Source: Escherichia phage AV126
Direction: 5' to 3' (one strand)
DNA: 64,000 nucleotides
Sequence record: OR352956.1
Both the position numbers and the translations under genes were made by a program. Each line of letters starts with the position of its first letter. Position 1 is the first letter of the stretch. Below, piece after piece: positions 39,978 to 53,318 of this stretch. The notes beneath the pieces were generated by a model. It was not told where the DNA came from and searched no databases. It worked only from the letters and a program-made list of their open reading frames with translations.

Positions 39978-42900
39978 TCAATGACAGGATGCCCAGGAAT
40001 TACCCACGTCATATCCGGCAGTAAGCTGAACATTAAGATTGTAAAATTCTCCAGCCTTAGTAACAGCTAAAGCAGCAAGTTCACCTGCCCGACTATAGGC
40101 TGTAAACCATCCACCTTTGGGAGATTCATGAATGTTAGCCCAAATTTGCCCTGTCTCTTTTTCCTTATTATGCTTCCATTCTTCAACTTTAGCAAGGCAT
40201 TCTTTATCAATTTTCTTTTGTTCTTCAGGATCGTCTACTTTCTTCCAACCTAATGATTCAGGTGAAAACCATTTAAATTCTACAAGGCTACGAGAAACTT
40301 CAAGCTGGGCTTCATCGTGATATGCAATCATTTGTTGCACGAAGTCTTTATTCTTCCAGTCATCTTTAAAGAAGTCAACACTTAGCCCTTCTTCTTCGAT
40401 CATGTCGTCATAAATAACCATTGCACGTTTAGCACAGATAACCCCACCACTTTGGAACAGAGAGTTAAGAATCGCGTGAGCAGAACGAGTAGGAACCTTA
40501 CGACCGTCAATACCCAAAACATACTGTTTACCAGTCTTAACCCAGAAATCGTTTAAACGTTCTTTAAGACGCGCCAGTGGGAATGCAGCTTCCCAGAAAG
40601 CATCGAACACCAGTTGCCCTGTGTATTTATCGCTACCAATTGTTTTAGCAACCTTGTCTGCTTGAGCGCCGTACGTGCAGTTACCTGTCAACGTGATAAA
40701 ACCATTCTGACGCATAACAAAAGATTCATTCTTGGTTGAGATACAGAATACATCTGTTACTCGTGAAAAAGCTTTTGTCAACCTCTGTCCTGAAATAGTT
40801 TGTCCGTTATTGATTGCCAACGTTAACATGCCATCTTTTTGAACAGAACCATACGCAATATTACCTGTCATATTGATAGCCAAAGAAACAGCGTCGCTAA
40901 TCTTACCTTTCTTTTGACGGATAACAAGACTGCCGTTTGGACGCTTATGACCATCTGCCATCCAGAATGCCTCTAAGAATGCTTCCAACACAGCTTGACC
41001 TTGATTAGCAATTAATGTAGACCAGTCCACTTCGTGCTTATTTTGACCCACTTCAACGCCACATTTAGTCAAAAATTCCCTAAACTGACTCTTATTAGGA
41101 CGTAATGAATGCATCGTTCCAGATACATACTCGTCAAATGTGAAGATATCTCCCACAGCCTCACGTGCTTCTTCTAAGAATTTTTTCTCATCTTGATCTA
41201 CCGTGACTGTAATACCCATTACTTTATTTCTGGCTTTGCTAGACCACTTATAGTAGCCATCCGAAAGAAGCCAGCCTAAGAAACGACCTTCTTCCACTGT
41301 TAGAGTAGACACCACACCAGATCGCCCTGCTGCAATTATGTTTGACTCCGAGTTTAAATCCTCTGTAGATCTACGCTCCACTTGCATATACTTAACATTG
41401 TTACCATCTGATCGCATAGTTTTTCTCTGTGCGTTAATCCACATATGATCGTTAGTAACTTCTACTTTGAACCACTTGTTACCGAGAGAGACAACTTCTG
41501 CATCGTTATAGTCCCACAGCTTAAGAATAGGGGTATATTCGTAAAGAGCGGTGTGAGTATTATAAGATAAAACTTCATCCCCTACAAAAAGATCTTTACG
41601 TTTCTTCCAACCCGTTCTTGTTAACACTTCCGTATTATCTACAGGTACACAACCGTATTTAACGCTCTTAGCAGGACCACGTTCAAACTTACGTCCAATA
41701 ATATCAGTAATATGTTTTGCCATCATAGTATGCACATCGTTTGGTTTTTCTAACAGAAGTGCATTACAGTAAGCATGATCAGGATTATCATATCTCCACG
41801 TATAATGCGACTCAATCTTCGCCTCTAATGAATCAAAGTCATAACCAATCTGGAAGTATTTAGGAACCTCTACACCAAACAGGTTACGCATCTGCCATCC
41901 AAACAAAGAGGTAACACGAGGAATATTGGCTACAGACCTATGCTTCATACGAGAGGTTGCTGCATCGCATGTAGCCGCTGGCGTAGGTATACGTCCATCT
42001 GCACGAACTGCTGCCAAGAAACCTTTGTTGTATTCTTGATCTTCTTCGTCTTCTTCCCAATCAGCACCGCCACCTAAAATAGAGTTCCTACGATGCTTAT
42101 ACGTTAAGTATTCTACAATCTGTGTAGCATAAGGAAACTTCTCACCCAAAGCTTGCAGGTTAGGACAAATTTCTTTTTCCTGACCTTTGGTAAAACATGG
42201 GTTAGTCAATACTTTAAGACCGCGACCTTTACCTTTTGCTATACGCTCTTGAATCTTCCTTTCCAAGGTTTCCGGTGTGCACTCCAGATGATCACAACGG
42301 TCCTGACAAAAATTAGAAGATAGAGTTTGCTCAACGTAAGCTCGAATACCTTTCTGAAGTTCTTCCTCACTCTTTTTAATCTTGGTGCCAGATTTAAGAG
42401 TCAAATCTTTATCTTTATATTCCGATGGTACCCAACCTAATCCTACAAGCCAGTTTTTAATATGGGTTGTATCGTTTAATGTTGCAGGGATGTGAGGATC
42501 ACATAAAGGCTCATCTGCTGCAACTGGCAGTTTCCACTCTTTCCCCAACATAACTAACCACCAATCTCCATCCCTCTCTTCCAAATGACCATCATGTTTC
42601 TTAGCAAAATTGATCATATGGTTAGTTGGCTCTAAGTTCTTTTTAATTTGCAACTTAGGTGGAATAAAAGCCTTAAGATAGCCTTTTGTTGCTGGTTTAG
42701 GTGGCAAAATAGGCTCAACGAGTAAACGAAGACGCTCCATTTCTGCATCCAAAAAAGCAAGGTTCTCTTCTGCTTGCTTCATGTTAAAAGCAAACCCACG
42801 GTGTTCCTGGCGCGTGATAATGTCTGCTACACGTTGTTCAAGTTCAAATGGACCTTCCCATTTATCATAATCCCCCCATTCTTCCATGAGGTAATTATAT

Positions 42901-43547
42901 ACACTTGTGTTGGCTTTGTTATCATAGATACAGTAATAAAGCATATCCGCAGCAAAAGTCTTAAATCGATCTTCTTCTGGAATCTCTTTACGGAAATCTA
43001 TTTTTACATCCCCACCTGCCTTTCGAGAAAGTGCTGCCAAACTATGTCCTGATTTGCCCTCAATCTTTCGATCTGGGTTTAACACTTTACTCAAAATCAA
43101 GGAGTCAATAAGTTTTACCTTATTTTTGCCCCACGTATTATATTTAACACTGTAATCTAATCCATAAAACAGTTTTGTAGCCAACCAGTCGTAGTTGATA
43201 CCGTTGTGAGCCACAGCCATTTCAACCAGATATTCAGGCTTGTCTTTAAAATAACCTTCATGATTAATAAAGTCTGGGAAATCTTTTAGTTGAAAATGCG
43301 TGTAATCTTGCGCCACATACTCTTTAAGAACATATGTGTATTTACCATCTGACTCTTCATAAGGACGCCCATCAAAGATGTATTTAGGGCCATCGTGGAA
43401 AGCTACTATTTCTCCTGTTTCATGGTTCTCTAAGACAATACAGTGCATTTGAAATGTGTCTTTGAGACGATAAGGACTAGCTAAATAATCAATAGTGTCA
43501 TTATTCAACAATCCGTTTGCTTCAATATCCCATGTAAACTTACTCAC
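39978..43547 (-). CDS. family A DNA polymerase with 3'-5' exonuclease domain, interrupted by an intein
   Basis: 1189 aa; exo motif WDIEANGL; motif A-like DFDSLEAK; motif B split (RGPAKSVKYG / CTYGAQADKVA) by 324 aa insert. Confidence 0.85.
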   Translation of the reverse strand: MSKFTWDIEANGLLNNDTIDYLASPYRLKDTFQMHCIVLENHETGEIVAFHDGPKYIFDGRPYEESDGKYTYVLKEYVAQDYTHFQLKDFPDFINHEGYFKDKPEYLVEMAVAHNGINYDWLATKLFYGLDYSVKYNTWGKNKVKLIDSLILSKVLNPDRKIEGKSGHSLAALSRKAGGDVKIDFRKEIPEEDRFKTFAADMLYYCIYDNKANTSVYNYLMEEWGDYDKWEGPFELEQRVADIITRQEHRGFAFNMKQAEENLAFLDAEMERLRLLVEPILPPKPATKGYLKAFIPPKLQIKKNLEPTNHMINFAKKHDGHLEERDGDWWLVMLGKEWKLPVAADEPLCDPHIPATLNDTTHIKNWLVGLGWVPSEYKDKDLTLKSGTKIKKSEEELQKGIRAYVEQTLSSNFCQDRCDHLECTPETLERKIQERIAKGKGRGLKVLTNPCFTKGQEKEICPNLQALGEKFPYATQIVEYLTYKHRRNSILGGGADWEEDEEDQEYNKGFLAAVRADGRIPTPAATCDAATSRMKHRSVANIPRVTSLFGWQMRNLFGVEVPKYFQIGYDFDSLEAKIESHYTWRYDNPDHAYCNALLLEKPNDVHTMMAKHITDIIGRKFERGPAKSVKYGCVPVDNTEVLTRTGWKKRKDLFVGDEVLSYNTHTALYEYTPILKLWDYNDAEVVSLGNKWFKVEVTNDHMWINAQRKTMRSDGNNVKYMQVERRSTEDLNSESNIIAAGRSGVVSTLTVEEGRFLGWLLSDGYYKWSSKARNKVMGITVTVDQDEKKFLEEAREAVGDIFTFDEYVSGTMHSLRPNKSQFREFLTKCGVEVGQNKHEVDWSTLIANQGQAVLEAFLEAFWMADGHKRPNGSLVIRQKKGKISDAVSLAINMTGNIAYGSVQKDGMLTLAINNGQTISGQRLTKAFSRVTDVFCISTKNESFVMRQNGFITLTGNCTYGAQADKVAKTIGSDKYTGQLVFDAFWEAAFPLARLKERLNDFWVKTGKQYVLGIDGRKVPTRSAHAILNSLFQSGGVICAKRAMVIYDDMIEEEGLSVDFFKDDWKNKDFVQQMIAYHDEAQLEVSRSLVEFKWFSPESLGWKKVDDPEEQKKIDKECLAKVEEWKHNKEKETGQIWANIHESPKGGWFTAYSRAGELAALAVTKAGEFYNLNVQLTAGYDVGNSWASCH
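40680..41651 (-). mobile_element. intein with double-LAGLIDADG-type homing endonuclease in polymerase motif B
   Basis: Insert begins CVPVDNTEVLTRTGW, has TNDHMWI block B-like motif and FLGWLLSDGYY / FLEAFWMADGHK, ends FITLTGN before Cys +1; in frame, 972 nt. Confidence 0.7.
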
Positions 43548-44341
43548 TATTCCTCCTTTCTAATGTTCTCCAGAACCCACTGAAGTTCTTTTAAACTTAA
43601 ACTTCTTACTCCCGCAGTTTTACTAGCTTCAGTTTTAAGTAACGGGTAAGCCTCAATGATACGTGTTTTAAGATCAGAAGTCAAGGCTTTTAAAAAATAG
43701 GTAGATGCTTCAGATAAAGAATCTTCTTCTGTTAGCACTTTACCTGCGCTTGCTCCGGCTCTCCTAACGGCTATGTCGTAGTCTTTGCTGTTACCTAATA
43801 CGAACAGTCGATTCTCTCCTAAAACAACGGGAGAACGCTTCTGGCTGCGTTTAATCCATATCTGGAATACACAAGGAACATCCCAAGGTTCTCCATGAAG
43901 AATAAAAGATCCTTTGGGACACTCTTCTTCGTGAAGAAGATGCATATAAGGATTTAGTTTGTGTGCAAAAAAGATTTTTTGAAATGTGCGAGGCAAGATA
44001 AAACAAATACCACCTTCGTTATCCAACATTTCAGCACAATGGTTAAAGAACTTAATGGCAAGACTAGCATTTTTTCCAAATGGAGGATTACCGACAAAAG
44101 CAGTTACACTACCAACAGACTCAACAGATTGAGCTAAAAAATCTGCCTCAATACAATCTTCAAACTTAGGGTCAATATCAAAAGAAGTTATGTTTTTAAA
44201 ACAAGAAGAGAAAGCTCCTTCTCCCGCAGATGGTTCTACGTAGTTAGCTTCCTCTCCAAAAATTTCTTTGATCTTATCACATAAGAACCCCGCATAAGCG
44301 GGGTTAGTGTAATATTGATCAAGTGTGTTCAACTTGCTCAA
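43547..44341 (-). CDS. N6-adenine DNA methyltransferase (gamma-class motif order)
   Basis: 264 aa; SAM motif VEPSAGEGAF then catalytic NPPF (FVGNPPFGK); no adjacent restriction endonuclease. Confidence 0.75.
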   Translation of the reverse strand: MSKLNTLDQYYTNPAYAGFLCDKIKEIFGEEANYVEPSAGEGAFSSCFKNITSFDIDPKFEDCIEADFLAQSVESVGSVTAFVGNPPFGKNASLAIKFFNHCAEMLDNEGGICFILPRTFQKIFFAHKLNPYMHLLHEEECPKGSFILHGEPWDVPCVFQIWIKRSQKRSPVVLGENRLFVLGNSKDYDIAVRRAGASAGKVLTEEDSLSEASTYFLKALTSDLKTRIIEAYPLLKTEASKTAGVRSLSLKELQWVLENIRKEE

Positions 44342-46665: not shown

Positions 46666-46944
46666 TTAAAATGGTTCGTTAGTCTCCATCATATATTCTG
46701 CTTCTAGTTCTTCCATGTGCTTTCTAAATTGGAAAGCAATTTCTGCTACAGTTACATTTAAATCTTTTTCAAAAACTTCTGTAGATCCTTCATAAAAACG
46801 AATACCGTCAATTAAAAGCCCTCCGTGGTAATCCCAATCGCTTTCACGAGAAAGTGGATTAGGTTCTTCATAATAGTAATCCACCTCCACGACCAAGGCT
46901 TTCCCGTTACGAGCGGTGTATTCAAAATCAAAAGTGTTAATCAT
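46666..46944 (-). CDS. hypothetical acidic protein
   Basis: 92 aa, Glu/Asp/Tyr-rich. Confidence 0.45.
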   Translation of the reverse strand: MINTFDFEYTARNGKALVVEVDYYYEEPNPLSRESDWDYHGGLLIDGIRFYEGSTEVFEKDLNVTVAEIAFQFRKHMEELEAEYMMETNEPF

Positions 46945-47888
46945 TATAACTCCTCAAATAAAAGCCTACGACGCTCATTCAACACATCAATGTGATAATG
47001 AGTCCTGACATACTTAGCTAATGCTAATCCTTTCTCCATGCAAACATCGGGAGCACTTAATAAGTATTCCGTAATATCTTTCCACTCGGAAGGTGTTTCA
47101 GCAAAGAATAACAAATCTTTAAACTCTTGTGTATGATAATTCTCACGAGGAGAGCAGATTAAAGGTAAACCCTTAGCACCTGCCTCAAGAATTTTAAGAT
47201 TGCTTTTTGCATTATTAAACACGTTATCGATCAATGGTGCAAGACTGATTTGATGACCATCGTAAGATTCCATGTAGTTGGCATATGGTCTTACACCTTC
47301 ATAAACACAAGTTGGTGCTACATTTTCCCTGATTAAAGACCATTCACGACTACTTAAAACTTCAGAATCCCTACGAAAACCACATATTGTAAGATCTTTA
47401 CCAAAATCGGGCAAGATAGCCAAATCTTGTTTATGTGTTTCACTTCCAGCCCAGACTAATGGAGTTTTGGAGTAGCGATCACGGGTCAACACAAATTGAC
47501 CTTCATCGTAAGGAAGTCCATTAGGGATTATGTGCACATTATCATTGTATTGTGAAAGTTCAACTTGCAAGGCAGGTGTCGTAGTTGTAACAAGATCACT
47601 GTGCTCTAAAAACCATTTTAAATGTTCACGAATACCTGATTCAAAAATACCTTCTAACATGTGTCCTTTTGGAATAACTAAAGAGTCATCCAAATCCATA
47701 ACCATTTTAAAGCCTAGGTTTTTAAGGGCTAAAAAGCCCTCTTTACCTTTTGTTGGCACTCCGTTAAAAACGAAAACGTTGTGTTTAGGTTGTGAAGAGA
47801 ACTGCCTTGAGTAAGGCAGCACTACCCTATGGAAATCGCAGACACTATAATTGATTCCGTTACGATTGTCAAGAATTATTTGTCCCAT
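46944..47888 (-). CDS. glycosyltransferase, GT-B fold (paralog 1)
   Basis: 314 aa; C-terminal SNLKILEAGAKGLPLICS resembles GT1/GT4 motif; paralog of 47896-48843. Confidence 0.55.
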   Translation of the reverse strand: MGQIILDNRNGINYSVCDFHRVVLPYSRQFSSQPKHNVFVFNGVPTKGKEGFLALKNLGFKMVMDLDDSLVIPKGHMLEGIFESGIREHLKWFLEHSDLVTTTTPALQVELSQYNDNVHIIPNGLPYDEGQFVLTRDRYSKTPLVWAGSETHKQDLAILPDFGKDLTICGFRRDSEVLSSREWSLIRENVAPTCVYEGVRPYANYMESYDGHQISLAPLIDNVFNNAKSNLKILEAGAKGLPLICSPRENYHTQEFKDLLFFAETPSEWKDITEYLLSAPDVCMEKGLALAKYVRTHYHIDVLNERRRLLFEEL

Positions 47889-47895
47889 ACTTCAC

Positions 47896-48843
47896 CTACA
47901 AACTTTCAATAACCTGGCGTCGCAACTCGTTTGCATCTGCCAGATTATAATGTGTTCGAACATGTTCAGCCAAGAACAAGCCACGATCTTCCCGATAATT
48001 TGGATTGCGAAGAAGCTTAACAATTTCGTAATGCCATTCTGCTTTATTCTCTGCGTAAGCAACAGCGCGAGCATCTACAGGGTTAAAATAAGGTAATACC
48101 TTAGAACAAACAATTGGAATACCTTTTGCTCCAGCTTCCAGGATTTTGAGATTGCTTTTACAATTATTAAAATCATTATCTACCAAAGGAGCTATAGCAA
48201 TAGCATGACTTTCGTAAACACTCATGTAATTATCTAAATCTTTTACAGCGGCTTTATATTTGGCATTTGGTAAATTTCTGCGAATCTTAATCCACTCTTG
48301 TCCCGTGATGCTTTGTGATGCTTCATATCCCGCAATAGTAAGAAGTTCATCATCGAAAGTATTAGAGACTAGTCGTAAGTCTGGTTCGTGACTAGCACCG
48401 CCAGCCCATACAACAGGGGTACCGGATGAACGATCATTTGACAAAGTGAATTGTCCGCTATCAAAAGGAAGTGCATTTCGGATCACAACAACATTCCTAT
48501 TTAAGTGACGGATCTTATATGCCAAATATTCCGTAGTCACAATAACCACATCAGCAAGCTTAACCATAGCTACAATAGCATGAGTGTTTGACTCGTATAG
48601 ACTTGCTAAATAATGTTCTGGATTAAGTTGGTAAAAATCATCTAAGTCTACAACAACCTTAACACCTTGACGTTTCAAAGATAAAACGTATTCTGCACCT
48701 TTAGAGTGGATACGGTTAAACACAACAACATCTTTCTTAGGTTGAATATTATTGTTGTTAAATGGTATAACAATACGATGATAGTCACAACCGCTGTGAG
48801 GTTTTGCATCAATTTTTAGTTTAGACCATTTTTTATTTGACAT
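47896..48843 (-). CDS. glycosyltransferase, GT-B fold (paralog 2)
   Basis: 315 aa; same N-terminal (CDYHRIVIPF) and C-terminal (SNLKILEAGAKGIPIVCS) motifs as neighbour. Confidence 0.55.
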   Translation of the reverse strand: MSNKKWSKLKIDAKPHSGCDYHRIVIPFNNNNIQPKKDVVVFNRIHSKGAEYVLSLKRQGVKVVVDLDDFYQLNPEHYLASLYESNTHAIVAMVKLADVVIVTTEYLAYKIRHLNRNVVVIRNALPFDSGQFTLSNDRSSGTPVVWAGGASHEPDLRLVSNTFDDELLTIAGYEASQSITGQEWIKIRRNLPNAKYKAAVKDLDNYMSVYESHAIAIAPLVDNDFNNCKSNLKILEAGAKGIPIVCSKVLPYFNPVDARAVAYAENKAEWHYEIVKLLRNPNYREDRGLFLAEHVRTHYNLADANELRRQVIESL

Positions 48844-49516
48844 GTGCTAGTGCCTCCTCATAGGAAATTCGGATTTTCCCATTTTTAATATCCTCTAAAG
48901 ATGCTTTATATTCTTCCCAGTTAATCCCAATAGCAGCCTCTTTCTCTTCTTTTGTCAGGTTAGCAAAAGGCATAGGATTGTTTCCAAAAACATCGTCTGG
49001 GTGGATATAAGCCATGATACGAAGTGGACAAGGTGTTGCCTGAATACCATGATTCAAACCAGCAGCTTGCAAACGGTGTCCCCATTCAGCATCTTCAAAA
49101 CCATAACCGTGAGTGTAAGGACGGAAATAACCCATCTTCTCAACAACGGAACGAGAATACATTGCAAATTGACACATTGCAAGTTCCCAGAGAATAACTT
49201 CTCCTTTGCTTCCAACAACTTTATCTTTGAAATACTCCGGCATACCAAAGAAATCCCATCCTCCAGAGACAGCTTGATCTACAAAGTATGTTTCCCATCC
49301 CTCCATGACTGGGTAGCAATCATCGTCAAAAATAAACCAATAATCATAACCTTCTTCATAAAACTGGTGCATAAGTTCATTCCTGGCATAAGCTACACCT
49401 TTACGATCTGGATCGTTGAATACTCGAAAATCTGCACGTGGATCTGTTACAAGGTAGTCTTTAAGTGGACGGACACCTACAGTGATAACACCCACTCCGA
49501 TTTTAATATTTTCCAT
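48833..49516 (-). CDS. glycosyltransferase, GT-A-like (DxD)
   Basis: 227 aa; YARNELM and WFIFDDDCYP acidic DxD-type motif. Confidence 0.5.
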   Translation of the reverse strand: MENIKIGVGVITVGVRPLKDYLVTDPRADFRVFNDPDRKGVAYARNELMHQFYEEGYDYWFIFDDDCYPVMEGWETYFVDQAVSGGWDFFGMPEYFKDKVVGSKGEVILWELAMCQFAMYSRSVVEKMGYFRPYTHGYGFEDAEWGHRLQAAGLNHGIQATPCPLRIMAYIHPDDVFGNNPMPFANLTKEEKEAAIGINWEEYKASLEDIKNGKIRISYEEALAHVK

Positions 49517-49524
49517 TTTCTCTC

Positions 49525-50088
49525 CTAAATAGTTTTACTGTGATCGTGACAGTGTAATAAATGATGTATAGACCGTTGAGGATTTGTTTGACCTAATCTG
49601 TAAATGTGAAACAGATACATTCCCCGCATCAATCCTAACCTCTTTCCTTTTTCATGTAAAGTGCGAGAGAAAATTAAGTCGAATTGGATAGATTTTTCTT
49701 CGAAAGGAATTTCGTTCCACAACGATTTTCTAAAAAGCAAAAAGAAACCTGCCAGAGGTGTTCCGAAAGGAACTTCTTCAACACTCACTTTATGATATTC
49801 TCTTGCAATCTTAGCATATTCTATATGGTTTAGAATATCTGGATCATCGTTAATTTGGTTAGAGAAAAGCTGATAACCACTACCTAACCTGTTACAAGTT
49901 GCACCTATTACATCAAAAGGTGGGTTTGAAATAACAAGCTCTTCAAGCATAGATGGTTGATCAGGCAGGAGGAACATTGTATCGGTATCTCTTAAGCACA
50001 CCCAACTATCATCTGGAAGAACGGCAATAGCTTCATTGATAGCCTTGCCGATATTTCCTGTCAGATAGGGAGTAATATAATAAATCAT
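49525..50088 (-). CDS. putative GT-A-like glycosyltransferase
   Basis: 187 aa; CLRDTDTMF DxD-like motif; tandem with other glycosyltransferases. Confidence 0.35.
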   Translation of the reverse strand: MIYYITPYLTGNIGKAINEAIAVLPDDSWVCLRDTDTMFLLPDQPSMLEELVISNPPFDVIGATCNRLGSGYQLFSNQINDDPDILNHIEYAKIAREYHKVSVEEVPFGTPLAGFFLLFRKSLWNEIPFEEKSIQFDLIFSRTLHEKGKRLGLMRGMYLFHIYRLGQTNPQRSIHHLLHCHDHSKTI

Positions 50089-50104: not shown

Positions 50105-50296
50105 TTAACTGTCAGCTACAATCCCACGTTTAATCATTTCTTGTTGGATTTGGATGACACGATCTCGTGCTTCCATATATTCTTTAAAAGATTCTTGGAG
50201 ATGGTCACGAGCTACATCCCGTAGTTTAATCAGTTTGTCGTTTGTCACTTCTTGAAGAGAGATTTCGCCAGTTTCATTGGTCCCAAGCGTTTTCAT
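50105..50296 (-). CDS. hypothetical protein
   Basis: 63 aa. Confidence 0.4.
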   Translation of the reverse strand: MKTLGTNETGEISLQEVTNDKLIKLRDVARDHLQESFKEYMEARDRVIQIQQEMIKRGIVADS

Positions 50297-50789: not shown

Positions 50790-51311
50790 TTAACTCCCCT
50801 TTGGTAGATAGAAACCATGCACTTTATCTCGATAAACAAGACGCATATCACGCTCCCAGTGTGTCCTTATATTCCGTTTCTTGAAGTATAGAGCACCTTT
50901 AGTAACATCTAAAACAGACCGCAATTCAGGAAAATGTTTCTCTAAATAAAGTAAACGTTCCGCTATTGCTTTTGCTTCCTGCCACTTATCTTTTTCTGTT
51001 ACGTTAAAAGTTTTCGCATATGAGAATTGCCCTTTCTGGAACAAGACTCCTCTGACTGTGTTAGGGAAGTATGTATCATTTCTTCTGTTGATTACTACAT
51101 TCCCAACGGCATTCATTCCTTTTTTACCCAGACCTCGACCTTCTGCGTAAATTGCACAAGCTAATAGAATTTTATCATTATATTGCTTTGTACATTTGTG
51201 AACTACTTTAGCAGTTTTTACGTTTGCAGCTTCGGCTTTCGCCACAACAGGTGTAAATGTAAAAGCAGTTAAGGATAGTAACGCAACTGTTACAAAGTTT
51301 TTTATCAGCAA
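50790..51311 (-). CDS. secreted cell wall hydrolase, SleB/CwlJ family (putative signal-peptide endolysin)
   Basis: 173 aa; TTG start after AAAGGAGG SD; signal peptide (MLIKNFVTVALLSLTAFTFTPVVAKA); VGNVVINRRNDTYFPNTVRGVLFQKGQFS matches family core. Confidence 0.7.
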   Translation of the reverse strand: MLIKNFVTVALLSLTAFTFTPVVAKAEAANVKTAKVVHKCTKQYNDKILLACAIYAEGRGLGKKGMNAVGNVVINRRNDTYFPNTVRGVLFQKGQFSYAKTFNVTEKDKWQEAKAIAERLLYLEKHFPELRSVLDVTKGALYFKKRNIRTHWERDMRLVYRDKVHGFYLPKGS

Positions 51312-51410: not shown

Positions 51411-52013
51411 TTATGGACATTCATACCATTCTTTTTTACCACCGAAGGCCATCACCACATCGCAAATATCCAGACCAGCTTTACCTACACCATATGCTTT
51501 CAGTTTCCATTCCCCATCTTCACGAACCAAGGAAGCCACGTGGCAGATTGTGTTGCCAGCTACTTCAGGAGCTAGGAAGTCAAAATCCAGAATTTCCACA
51601 TTGCGCTCGGAGTCGAAGATTTTAAGCATACCTTCAGAAGCATGACCAAAACGTTTCAGACCTGTATCATCATCAATGGTCAGAACAAAGGCAATCTCTT
51701 GTGCATCAGGAGAGATTTTAGCCAGAGTAATATCAATCTGCTCCATGCTGCCAGTCCCATCACGAACATCGTCACCAGCGAAGGTAGAACGTTCAGGATC
51801 AAACTTGTTAGCATAGCAAACCAGATGACGTGCAGACAGCATTTCAGGATTGCCAGCGGCATTGTGACGACAAACCAGTGCACTTACATCCAGATCCAGT
51901 TTAGAATCAGATTTCCAAGAGAATTCCAGGCGCAGTTCTTTCAGAGCCGGAGCAACTTTCTTCAGGGAAATTTTTTCGCTAGAGCCTTTTTTCAGGGAAA
52001 TTTTATCATTCAT
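51411..52013 (-). CDS. terD: TerD-domain protein
   Basis: 200 aa; N-terminal duplicated motif MNDKISLKKGSSEKISLKK parallels the start of bacterial TerD; GDDVRDGTGS resembles TerD Ca-binding motif. Confidence 0.75.
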   Translation of the reverse strand: MNDKISLKKGSSEKISLKKVAPALKELRLEFSWKSDSKLDLDVSALVCRHNAAGNPEMLSARHLVCYANKFDPERSTFAGDDVRDGTGSMEQIDITLAKISPDAQEIAFVLTIDDDTGLKRFGHASEGMLKIFDSERNVEILDFDFLAPEVAGNTICHVASLVREDGEWKLKAYGVGKAGLDICDVVMAFGGKKEWYECP

Positions 52014-52298: not shown

Positions 52299-52527
52299 TT
52301 CTTCCTCCTAATGTTATCTCCGGTTTGTATATACGAAGAATTATAGCATTTTCATTTTCTTTGTCAACCCATTCTTCATAATCGGGCCATACATGAATCT
52401 CTACTCTACTTACAATATTTTCCATCCGCACAGTCCCAATGAAATATTCTTTGAGACTGCGCATAATGAAAGCTTCTCTCTCGCGCCAATAATTTTCTAC
52501 GACTTGAGAGGCAAGCTCGTCGATCAT
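52279..52527 (-). CDS. hypothetical protein
   Basis: 82 aa; start overlaps vWA gene stop. Confidence 0.4.
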   Translation of the reverse strand: MIDELASQVVENYWREREAFIMRSLKEYFIGTVRMENIVSRVEIHVWPDYEEWVDKENENAIILRIYKPEITLGGRSVKLRN

Positions 52528-53318
52528 TTTTTAGCACCTACCTTAACAACCCACTCTCCGAACTCTTCAGATAAGAGTTTGTCATAAAGCTCTGAATCTG
52601 TCAAGTCTAAATCTTTAATGCCAATAAAACCAACATTGTCATAAGCATTTGCCAGTTCTTTCAGGAAGCTGAACTTCTCATTACCAACGCCAACCATGAA
52701 CCAATAGATAGGCTTATTCTTATTCTCTTCAATAAGACGACGAACAGCACTAGGATCACCATTCTCACCATCTGTCTGGAAGAATACAACACCAGGAGTA
52801 ACGTCAGCACCTGGTTCAGATACAGCTACAACTTTTTCACGCTCTACAGATACTGTTTCAGTTTTACCCAGCAGACGATTAAAGAAGCCTTTCTTTGGAG
52901 CCTCCTCTTGTACCACTTGTTTAGTGGTAACATATTTGGTAACAGTGCCAAAATACTCATCGTAGATATCTGCCATTACAGGGGCGTAATTTGTTCCACC
53001 TCCGATACGAACATTACGCATACATTTACCAACATAGTCATCGTAAACGTCTGCTGTTGCTGGAGTAAGCTCTTGAGAACTCGTATTGAAGGCCCACATG
53101 TCAATTTGTTCATTATCGTCGAACAGCATACCAAAAGGAAGCAGTTTGCCTACAAAATCACTCACTACCCCACGAGTATATAGACCATGCATACTACCAG
53201 AAATATCTAGAGCACATGCTACACGAAGAACAATCTTACCTTCATTCAGGTTCTTATTCTTTTTCAGAGAGAAAGCAAGGTTTTCTTGACGTTTTTTCAG
53301 GCTGATTTTCTCGGACAT
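52524..53318 (-). CDS. von Willebrand factor A domain protein (TerY-like)
   Basis: 264 aa; MIDAS motif DISGSM; N-terminus MSEKISLKK shares the EKISLKK motif with the TerD-like protein. Confidence 0.7.
   Translation of the reverse strand: MSEKISLKKRQENLAFSLKKNKNLNEGKIVLRVACALDISGSMHGLYTRGVVSDFVGKLLPFGMLFDDNEQIDMWAFNTSSQELTPATADVYDDYVGKCMRNVRIGGGTNYAPVMADIYDEYFGTVTKYVTTKQVVQEEAPKKGFFNRLLGKTETVSVEREKVVAVSEPGADVTPGVVFFQTDGENGDPSAVRRLIEENKNKPIYWFMVGVGNEKFSFLKELANAYDNVGFIGIKDLDLTDSELYDKLLSEEFGEWVVKVGAKK

Follow-up and report, generated by a model that had tools for sequence, protein, structure and literature searches.

A mobile, phage-specific glycosyltransferase module in a Phapecoctavirus and its possible role in virion glycosylation

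The three families of glycosyltransferase (GT) genes that are clustered in Escherichia phage AV126 (the GT4, GT3, and GT-B families) form a mobile, phage-specific module, and this is the new result of our analysis. In the window, the whole 64,000-nucleotide stretch that was analysed (OR352956.1), the cluster occupies positions 46944–50088 of the minus strand and consists of four co-directional GT genes, two of them paralogous GT-B genes and two of them mutually unrelated GT-A genes with a DxD motif. Our best explanation, held tentatively and with somewhat less than even confidence, is that the enzymes assemble a probably rhamnose-containing glycan stepwise on virion proteins.

All genes of the cassette are read from the minus strand. 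Its first gene, GT4 (49525–50088), encodes a compact GT-A glycosyltransferase of 187 aa and is followed by GT3 (48833–49516; GT-A, GT2-like, 227 aa), GT2 (47896–48843; GT-B, 315 aa), and GT1 (46944–47888; GT-B, 314 aa). These genes already carried a glycosyltransferase label in RefSeq and in the 2012 phi92 record. The source phage is a phAPEC8-like Phapecoctavirus. Two minus-strand ORFs mark the edges of the cassette, which was inserted between genes homologous to PVP-SE1 gp006 and gp008: upstream a 63-aa ORF (50105–50296; phrog_5932), and downstream a 92-aa ORF (46666–46944; phrog_4240), whose start overlaps the stop of GT1 in the sequence. According to notes in the phi92 record, they are orthologs of phi92 gp167/PVP-SE1 gp006 and phi92 gp162/PVP-SE1 gp008, respectively. 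The first-pass annotation had attached importance to the position beside replication genes. The location is right, since the cassette here lies outside the structural block and within the minus-strand replication and host-interaction block, but the position looks incidental: it is that of an insertion, and elsewhere the cassette is found with head and terminase genes. A consensus scan identified a candidate sigma-70 promoter, by pattern match only, at 52340–52367 on the minus strand (TTGACA, 16 nt, TG, TATAAT; 12/12 consensus), and the unit headed by it extends over TerD, the lysin, and the GT genes. Its place downstream of this perfect sigma-70-type candidate suggests that the cassette is expressed in the early or middle phase and not late; this, like the position outside the structural block, speaks against a role in virion glycosylation. 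GT1, GT3, and GT4 are acidic proteins. The maximum Kyte–Doolittle hydropathy in a 19-residue window was 0.76–1.65, and thus no transmembrane segment was found in any of the four proteins.

That all four proteins are GTs, two of GT-B and two of GT-A type, had been proposed in the first-pass annotation and is confirmed. GT1 and GT2 share 41% identity (E = 1e-77). GT2 matched phrog_7162 (E = 1e-148) and stayed below the Pfam cut-offs for Glyco_trans_1_4 (22.8 against 27 bits) and Glyco_trans_1_2 (20.4 against 25 bits); GT1 barely reached the cut-off for Glyco_trans_1_2 (25.2 against 25 bits). PF13524 or PF13692 is present in the precomputed annotations of many GT-B homologs, and the notes of the phi92 record give a GT-B/TreT-like fold. 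Identity to homologs was 42–79% for GT2 and 32–41% for GT1. Judged by sequence, GT2 is the ancestral-like copy, nearest to the single-copy homologs of other phages, and GT1 its diverged tandem paralog. Paired tandem GT-B matches occurred only in loci L017–L024 and L096, and the duplication is limited to Stephanstirmvirinae-like loci. The GT-B family keeps 40 invariant columns, among them a KSNLKxLEAG motif, and every family-invariant residue is still present in GT1. From the tandem duplication the first-pass annotation had also suggested sequential sugar addition, and a multi-enzyme set working in sequence is indeed plausible.

Both GT3 and GT4 have a single Rossmann-like GT-A fold and a conserved DxD metal/nucleotide-binding motif. 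In GT3, D64-D65-D66 was invariant in 18 sequences, as were N46 and E141-D142, and R45 was near-invariant. In GT4, D34-x-D36 was near-invariant (conservation of D34 and D36 was 90% or higher among 25 sequences), and N66-R67 and H161 were invariant. Fold searches returned generic GT-A matches that did not identify the acceptor, and sequence searches of PDB chains with GT1, GT3, and GT4 gave nothing meaningful. Distant phage relatives of GT3 were found only in mycobacteriophages, where 356 records contain such a GT (Rita gp101 and Myrna gp234 among them). GT3 aligned with the N-terminal GT-A domain of Rita gp101 over 182 aa (25% identity, E = 1e-13), and no significant match to gp101 or gp103 of Rita was obtained for GT1, GT2, or GT4. 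Among the four, only GT3 is homologous to mycobacteriophage GTs.

The module was confirmed in at least 561 stretches of IMG/VR, versus 20 loci in the genomes of 185,579 species, and several of these 20 cellular loci are prophages. GT-B relatives of at least 37% identity directly abut a GT3-like gene and often a GT4-like gene too, and the gene order is shuffled among loci (GT4-GT3-GTB, GT3-GTB-GT4, and GTB-GT3). We counted the Pfam families around the module in 45 dereplicated loci outside Stephanstirmvirinae. Within 7 kb downstream the commonest were Terminase_6N (13), Terminase_6C (12), the GT2 family (6), Terminase_3 (4), and tape measure (4), with portals and capsids also among them, and upstream families included Phage_portal (6), TerL_nuclease (5), Phage_capsid (4), and Peptidase_S78 (4). 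Locus L045, for example, has the order TerL, portal, prohead protease, HK97-type capsid, GT3-like, GT-B, GT4-like, tail tube, and tape measure, and in unrelated phages and prophages the module sometimes directly follows the major capsid gene. In HK97-like prophages of Enterobacter and Serratia the order is lysin, GT4-like, (epimerase/dehydratase), GT3-like, GT-B, HNH, TerS, TerL, and capsid. A lysin gene precedes the cassette both in these prophages and in the source phage. Phages that infect hosts as far apart as Pseudomonas and Chitinophaga carry the module within their clusters of head genes, and small temperate phages that lack genes for nucleotide metabolism have the cassette too. More distant relatives occur in Cellulophaga phage phi12:1, where a GT4-like domain and a Methyltransf_24 gene lie between portal/MuF and protease/capsid, and in Streptomyces phage Zuko (UDP-Glc dehydrogenase, GT, terminase). 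Since the mobile cassette adjoins capsid and packaging genes in these genomes, sugar-coating of virion proteins is likelier than DNA modification. Unrelated accessory genes are often inserted just upstream of terminase, and therefore the neighbourhood is suggestive rather than proof.

Together with the cassette, these phages inherit the full set of genes for dTDP-L-rhamnose synthesis. The first-pass annotation had proposed looking for sugar-nucleotide genes in the rest of the genome, and they were found outside the window: in a 98%-identical relative, RmlA, RmlB, RmlC, and RmlD all score above the NCBIfam equivalog cut-offs. At 60% identity or more, RmlC was found in 129 phage records and the GTs in 130–131, but this co-occurrence is confined to one clade and thus is not independent evidence. 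We infer the donor, the acceptor, and the order of action as follows. GT4, GT3, and the duplicated GT-B pair (GT2 and GT1) would be a phage glycan-assembly module of soluble cytoplasmic enzymes, which would add sugars in turn during lytic growth to build a short oligosaccharide, with the additional GT-B copy providing one further step or linkage. At least one donor would probably be dTDP-L-rhamnose made by the phage RmlABCD. By analogy with the glycan coat reported for Che8/Rita-type mycobacteriophages, the likeliest acceptor would be virion structural proteins (capsid, decoration, or tail). No obvious Ser/Thr-rich C-terminal tails were seen on the capsid, decoration, sheath, and tube proteins in the window; their absence is uninformative for glycan attachment to the capsid or tail tube. 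With still less confidence, we consider it possible that the trio, present in hundreds of viral contigs, is a widespread and unrecognised virion-glycosylation module of phages with Gram-negative hosts, and that phAPEC8- and phi92-type phages coat their capsid or tail by means of phage-made dTDP-L-rhamnose.

A role in host surface glycans was the second option of the first-pass annotation. The same soluble enzymes and phage-made dTDP-rhamnose might instead remodel undecaprenyl-linked intermediates of LPS, O-antigen, ECA, or capsule at the cytoplasmic face, so that receptor glycans are altered or blocked, leading to superinfection exclusion or to fewer progeny lost on cell debris. Folds of the Glyco_trans_1_2/1_4 and GT2-like types are characteristic of enzymes that make polysaccharides, and the cassette follows a lysin gene here and in prophages; the lysis–terminase junction is a known site of surface-modifying accessory genes in temperate phages. 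RmlC and RmlD would draw on dTDP-4-keto-6-deoxyglucose, which is also a precursor of the ECA sugar Fuc4NAc. Infection by relatives of these phages requires ECA and the LPS core (PMC8594841). However, all four proteins lack membrane segments, and the 25 most frequent Pfam families of each flank of the surveyed loci include no flippase, polymerase, or initiating transferase. Receptor masking specific to a host also fails to explain a module that is spread over phages of hosts as different as Pseudomonas, Chitinophaga, Cellulophaga, and Streptomyces. We regard envelope remodelling as a real rival, but as less likely than virion glycosylation. Its classical form, seroconversion of lysogens, was rejected in view of the lack of membrane proteins and the presence of the same cassette in strictly virulent phages, which argues against lysogenic conversion. 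Even less probable is that the module glycosylates a non-virion protein of the host or phage, a small molecule, or a lipid during infection. The fold data leave the acceptor unrestricted, and a diverged relative of the GT-B genes is conserved in synteny with an intimin/invasin-type adhesin and a 555–571-aa ORF in Burkholderia dolosa and Trinickia, which hints at protein-associated roles of the family outside phages. No specific candidate emerged, however, and virion morphogenesis genes are the dominant association of the module.

Glycosylation of phage DNA bases, for example with rhamnose, for restriction evasion was suggested in the first-pass annotation and had also been floated for these GTs by Olsen et al. 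2020 (stated in PMC7552041). Several observations appear to agree with it. Like a-gt and b-gt of T4, the cassette has replication genes as neighbours, and the rml genes share a block with genes of nucleotide metabolism (RNR, a nucleotide kinase, and ThyX-like and MazG-like genes). GT3 weakly matches Pfam TAGT (TET-associated glycosyltransferase, PF20691) and phrog_842, ‘beta-glucosyl-HMC-alpha-glucosyltransferase’, and of the TAGT pattern R...DDD...EDY/F it conserves R45, D64–D66, and E141-D142. But the residue after E141-D142 is A/T/S/I/V, and the motif is generic to GT2-like enzymes. The TAGT match covers only 37 residues (32–68) and scores 19.4 bits against a gathering cut-off of 27.5, and TAGT proteins rank 30th and 49th among the viral structural matches of GT3.

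The precursors of such hypermodification are also missing. The reconstructed genome (the window together with L002 and L003) was found to contain no ThyA/gp42-type hydroxymethylase, hydroxylase, alpha- or beta-GT homolog, or annotated dioxygenase. The dUMP/dCMP hydroxymethylase that the first-pass annotation had proposed to look for was thus not found. The sole thymidylate-synthase-like gene is of the ThyX type, and the 332-aa ‘thymidylate synthase’ was accordingly rejected as a hydroxymethylase (ThyX/Thy1). The best tblastn match of T4 gp42 in the reconstructed genome had an E of 1.7. T4 a-gt and b-gt had no significant blastp match among GT1–GT4 (best E = 0.063 over 28 residues), and their tblastn matches in the same genome had E = 0.72 or worse. 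According to the Pyle et al. preprint, TAGT genes occur together with genes for a 5mYOX/TET or ThyS-type enzyme; no such partner was found near the cassette.

Phage phenotypes point in the same direction. The phi92-like phages with the same four genes and rml are ‘exceptionally susceptible’ to RM systems (PMC8594841), and two cassette-bearing phi92-like phages, PATM and Pau, are sensitive to BREX by ~7 orders of magnitude and not to BrxU (PMC8565348). These reports concern cassette-bearing phages of a sister genus and not the source phage itself. A 2026 Durham paper on DNA modification covers BrxU-sensitive Straboviridae only and no phi92-like phages, a 2026 paper on 5-hydroxycytosine and the Pyle preprint mention neither these phages nor rhamnose, and the BME3 and LuPh7 papers contain no relevant experiments. 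The cassettes of small temperate phages without nucleotide-metabolism genes and the acidity of GT1, GT3, and GT4 also speak against DNA as the acceptor. The proposal was not borne out, and we consider it very improbable. This corrects the speculation in the literature, and the very probable lack of an anti-restriction modification accounts for the high restriction sensitivity of these large phages.

Phapecoctavirus and phi92-like phages have been isolated repeatedly and are proposed for therapy and biocontrol. If virion glycosylation is the true function, a phage-built glycan on the particle would matter for neutralisation by antibodies, for pharmacokinetics, and for host range, and a glycan coat could influence immune recognition, stability, and adsorption. 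Virion glycosylation would then be extended beyond actinobacteriophages. The compact three-family module can be used to search for glycosylated phages in metagenomes.

Among known systems, the T-even DNA GTs (T4 alpha-GT and beta-GT; T2/T6, TAGT) are similar in that they are phage GTs encoded among replication genes, and GT3 resembles them in its generic GT-A fold and its R, DDD, and ED motifs. They differ in that GT1–GT4 have no sequence homology to T4 a-gt and b-gt and GT3 matches TAGT below threshold. The hydroxymethylase, hydroxylase, and 5mYOX partner of T-even/TET systems were not found in the source phage, and its cassette-bearing relatives are RM- and BREX-sensitive. In gtrABC-type O-antigen modification, phage GTs likewise alter a glycan relevant to adsorption. 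Gtr proteins are integral membrane proteins expressed in lysogens, whereas the cassette proteins have no transmembrane segments and occur in strictly virulent phages. Capsid glycosylation in Chlorovirus PBCV-1 (A064R/A64R and other viral GTs) belongs to a eukaryotic virus; the likeness is at the fold level only (8% identity), and the enzyme architecture is unlike that of the cassette.

The virion-glycosylation genes of mycobacteriophages (Che8/Rita Cluster F, Corndog, and Myrna) were reportedly described by Freeman et al. in 2023. GT1/GT2 and GT4 lack significant matches to Rita gp101 and gp103, and the source phage differs in its Gram-negative host, in having the cassette in a replication block, and in its co-inherited dTDP-rhamnose pathway. 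The capsids of Che8 and Rita are reported to be glycosylated (PMC11256854; PMC12619734); for Stephanstirmvirinae phages virion glycosylation is a prediction from gene content. Both systems have several soluble phage GTs in an operon, and GT3 shares homology with the GT-A domain at the N terminus of Rita gp101. In relatives of the source phage the module likewise adjoins virion genes, sometimes with a methyltransferase.

Four co-directional open reading frames on the minus strand fill positions 46944-50088. In order of transcription, they are GT4 (49525-50088, 187 aa), GT3 (48833-49516, 227 aa), GT2 (47896-48843, 315 aa), and GT1 (46944-47888, 314 aa). Since each gene has its own Shine-Dalgarno sequence, the junctions are 7-8 nt gaps or an 11-nt overlap, and no minus-strand terminator-like site was found within the cluster, the four genes form one translationally coupled unit. 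The GT1 stop also overlaps the start of the following ORF. The unit lies within a long minus-strand block in the order TerD, SleB-type lysin, small ORFs, glycosyltransferases, primase-helicase, methyltransferase, and DNA polymerase. Sixty-four Phapecoctavirus genomes (phAPEC8-like, Stephanstirmvirinae, about 150 kb) match the region at 98-99% identity. In their RefSeq versions the genes carry the label 'glycosyltransferase (x4)', and GT folds were noted for the orthologs gp163-166 in the phi92 record of 2012; as an annotation, the cluster is not new.

The first-pass annotation described two paralogous GT-B-like genes and two GT-A-like genes with DxD motifs, and this description was borne out by paralogy, phrog and Pfam matches, motifs, and models. 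The paralogs GT1 and GT2 (41% identity, E=1e-77) match phrog_7162 (E about 1e-145), and they score near or below threshold against the Pfam GT-B C-terminal families Glyco_trans_1_2/1_4. Both are probably active because each retains all 40 invariant residues of the family (40/40). In profile searches over 99 fetched loci, a duplicated tandem GT-B was found in Stephanstirmvirinae-like loci only; judged from sequence, the ancestral-like member of the pair is GT2, GT1 having diverged. GT3 matches phrog_2456 and GT4 matches phrog_14179, with no detectable sequence similarity between the two. AlphaFold2 models of these GT-A enzymes, made from homolog alignments, were confident (pLDDT values of 88.8 and 90.9), and catalytic-type motifs are conserved (R45/N46, D64-D66, and E141-D142 in GT3; D34-x-D36 in GT4). 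GT1, GT3, and GT4 are acidic, and none of the four proteins has a membrane segment.

A perfect sigma-70 consensus promoter candidate with an extended -10 (TTGACA, 16 nt, TG, TATAAT; 12/12) is located at 52340-52367 (minus strand), upstream of the transcription unit of an 89-aa ORF, TerD, the lysin, and the GTs; the total promoter-like count of the region is not in excess of the shuffled expectation. The cassette is outside the structural block of AV126, and its position downstream of this candidate speaks against classical late expression. The annotated endolysin (50790-51311, minus strand), just upstream of the cassette, is a SleB/Hydrolase_2-type cell-wall hydrolase with a hydrophobic signal-peptide-like N-terminus (MLIKNFVTVALLSLTAFTFTPVVAKAEA), and the lysin-then-GT order also occurs in Enterobacter and Serratia prophages. 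Although virulent, the phage has a Ter-type stress cluster on the minus strand (51411-52013, 52524-53318, and further upstream). Its members are a TerD-domain protein (Pfam E=3e-28), a vWA-TerF-like protein (E=3e-37), and, as seen in relatives, the product of a TelA-like 'tellurite resistance' gene. The family-A DNA polymerase ORF (39978-43547, minus strand, 1189 aa) contains an intein-like insertion of 324 aa at residues 633-956, bordered by KSVKYG/CVPVDNTEV...ITLTGN/CTYGAQADK. The polymerase of vB_Ec-G1, a 98%-identical relative, has KSVKYGITYGAQADK at this site but is still 1110 aa long, and thus there is extra sequence elsewhere in the protein. Between the primase-helicase and the polymerase (43547-44341, minus strand), a 264-aa methyltransferase-like protein has a strong phrog_5172 match and a weak Pfam Eco57I match (16.7 bits against a cut-off of 25.3 bits). 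Relatives encode several more DNA methyltransferases; related phages are nonetheless RM-sensitive.

Glycosylation of DNA bases, one of the functions proposed in the first-pass annotation, did not find support. The routes to glycosylated pyrimidines found in the literature start with a ThyA-family hydroxymethylase/hydroxylase or 5mYOX/TET (PMC13326640; Pyle et al. preprint), and Olsen et al. also speculated on rhamnosylation of hydroxymethylated bases (PMC7552041). We looked for a dUMP/dCMP hydroxymethylase in a genome reconstructed from the window and two comparison loci (L002, and L003 from vB_Ec-G1). It contained nothing resembling T4 gp42 (best tblastn E=1.7) and no homolog of alpha-GT or beta-GT, and its sole 'thymidylate synthase' is ThyX-type. 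The latter (L003 21315-22313, outside the window) is a divergent 332-aa ThyX/Thy1 homolog that clears the Pfam cut-off yet scores far under that of NCBIfam thyX, with a match to residues 22-176 only; it adjoins an NT5C-like nucleotidase, a small nucleotide kinase, and a MazG-like pyrophosphohydrolase. GT3 scored 19.4 bits against the profile of TET-associated glycosyltransferases (TAGT; cut-off 27.5 bits) over 37 residues, and TAGT proteins ranked only 30th and 49th among its viral structural matches. The phi92-like BASEL phages encode the same four GTs (66-75% identity) and rml genes (RmlC shown for JohannJBalmer). Phi92-like phages and their relatives are 'exceptionally susceptible' to RM, their putative dTDP glycosylation machinery notwithstanding (Maffei et al., PMC8594841). 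BREX restricts the Durham phages PATM and Pau about 10^7-fold, and the two are outside the BrxU-sensitive set (PMC8565348); BrxU cleaves DNA with C5-cytosine modifications (PMC8565348; PMC13390438). vB_Eco_PATM has GT4 and RmlC, and we take 'Pau', from its name, to be the phage deposited as 'Paula'. These restriction data come from relatives rather than Phapecoctavirus itself, and rare or sequence-specific modifications may occur, but DNA glycosylation by the GTs is highly improbable.

Sugar-nucleotide genes, which the first-pass annotation had suggested seeking elsewhere in the genome, are present in vB_Ec-G1. There, RmlA, RmlB, RmlC, and RmlD, all above NCBIfam equivalog cut-offs (4/4), are encoded side by side some 75 kb away from the cassette. 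With a minimum of 60% identity, RmlC was found in 129 phage records, GT-B in 130, and GT4 in 131, with the same kind of Stephanstirmvirinae phages among the matches listed. Since RmlABCD is present and co-occurs with the GTs, dTDP-L-rhamnose is a likely donor; the co-occurrence is confined to one clade. Such a donor could also serve remodeling of the host envelope (LPS, ECA, or capsule). This idea is attractive in that relatives of these phages need ECA and the LPS core (PMC8594841), and that RmlC/D would compete for the compound from which the ECA sugar Fuc4NAc is made. However, envelope remodeling explains neither the absence of any membrane component nor the place of the module among the head genes of phages that infect unrelated hosts, and we consider it unlikely.

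GT2 homologs labelled as bacterial proteins were found within prophages. An HK97-like prophage of Enterobacter huaxiensis has the order Q antiterminator, lysin, GT4-like (44% identity), NAD-dependent sugar epimerase/dehydratase, GT3-like (38%), GT-B (46%), HNH, TerS, TerL, protease-capsid, and portal. A Serratia prophage likewise has the GT4-like, GT3-like, GT-B trio, then HNH, TerS, and TerL, and in a Pseudomonas silvicola prophage and E217-like phages a GT3-like gene and GT-B are followed by terminase, portal, scaffold, cement, and capsid genes. Pattern scans confirmed at least 561 relatives in IMG/VR and found only 20 loci in a genome set with one entry per species (185,579 species). In profile searches over the 99 fetched loci, relatives at 37% identity or more nearly all have GT-B abutting a GT3-like gene, often with a GT4-like gene, in varying order. 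This conserved linkage despite shuffled gene order indicates that the trio is a functional module. In three Stephanstirmvirinae-like IMG/VR loci (L020-L022), GT4 abuts two GT-B genes and a GT3-like gene was not detected, and thus the composition varies even inside the lineage. Because the flanks of the phi92 cassette match PVP-SE1 gp006 and gp008, the cassette is an insertion relative to rV5-like phages; its closeness to replication genes looks fortuitous.

In Burkholderia dolosa (locus L007, 7205-8440) and Trinickia symbiotica (locus L009, 10001-11026), a GT-B homolog that has diverged (41-45% identical to GT2) has two conserved syntenic partners, an inverse autotransporter of the intimin/invasin type (IAT_beta, Big_1, Invasin_D3) and an ORF of 555-571 aa that carries no annotation. 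This non-phage context may reflect adhesin glycosylation. It hints at some other protein or a small molecule as the acceptor, which is quite doubtful for the phage cassette.

The neighborhood survey (same-strand ORFs of at least 200 aa within 7 kb) covered 45 loci that are not from Stephanstirmvirinae, after dereplication at a GT-B identity of 75%. Downstream of the module were Terminase_6N (13), Terminase_6C (12), GT2 (6), Terminase_3 (4), and tape measure (4), as well as portals, major capsids, and FkbM/Methyltransf_24 methyltransferases; upstream were Phage_portal (6), TerL_nuclease (5), Phage_capsid (4), Peptidase_S78 (4), and replication proteins. Two architectures recurred, at the early-gene/terminase boundary and inside the head module. 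In L045, a locus checked gene by gene, the order is TerL, portal, prohead protease, HK97-type capsid, GT3-like, GT-B, GT4-like, tail tube, and tape measure. Very distant relatives follow the same pattern. In Streptomyces phage Zuko, a homolog of GT-B (E=4e-21) and a UDP-glucose dehydrogenase come before the terminase. Cellulophaga phi12:1 gp40 has a C-terminal GT4-like domain (E=4e-32) and adjoins a Methyltransf_24 gene, the pair lying between portal/MuF and protease/capsid. Sites near terminase also gather unrelated accessory genes. In the Pseudomonas silvicola prophage (L004 8871-9302), a 143-aa Ser/Thr/Ala-rich Big_2 Ig-like protein is encoded just upstream of the GT3-like and GT-B pair, before terminase, and is conceivably a decoration-type acceptor.

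We tentatively favor a soluble glycan-assembly line, with a virion structural protein as the best-supported acceptor. Two different GT-A enzymes and one GT-B (two here) would add sugars stepwise, rhamnose from the phage's own pathway would be a probable component, and virion structural proteins would receive the glycan. The GT folds do not reveal the acceptor, and no obvious acceptor tails were seen on the virion proteins in the window.

That the cluster encodes GTs had been annotated before, and its function has so far been speculated on only as DNA modification. New here are the evidence against that speculation, the finding that three GT families make up a mobile module specific to phages, the systematic way in which this module accompanies morphogenesis genes, and a sequence link to GTs of the Che8/Rita mycobacteriophage group with reportedly glycosylated capsids. 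The cassette belongs with phage-encoded glycosylation modules, probably those of the virion-glycosylating type. The distant phage relatives of GT3 are 356 mycobacteriophage records only, including Rita gp101 (E=1e-13) and Myrna gp234. Glycans have been reported on capsid proteins of Che8 and Rita, and, for mycobacteriophages, at the C-terminal ends of capsid and tail-tube subunits (PMC11256854; PMC12619734). GT3 of AV126 is thus related in sequence to gp101 of Rita, a phage whose capsid, like that of Che8, is reported to be glycosylated.
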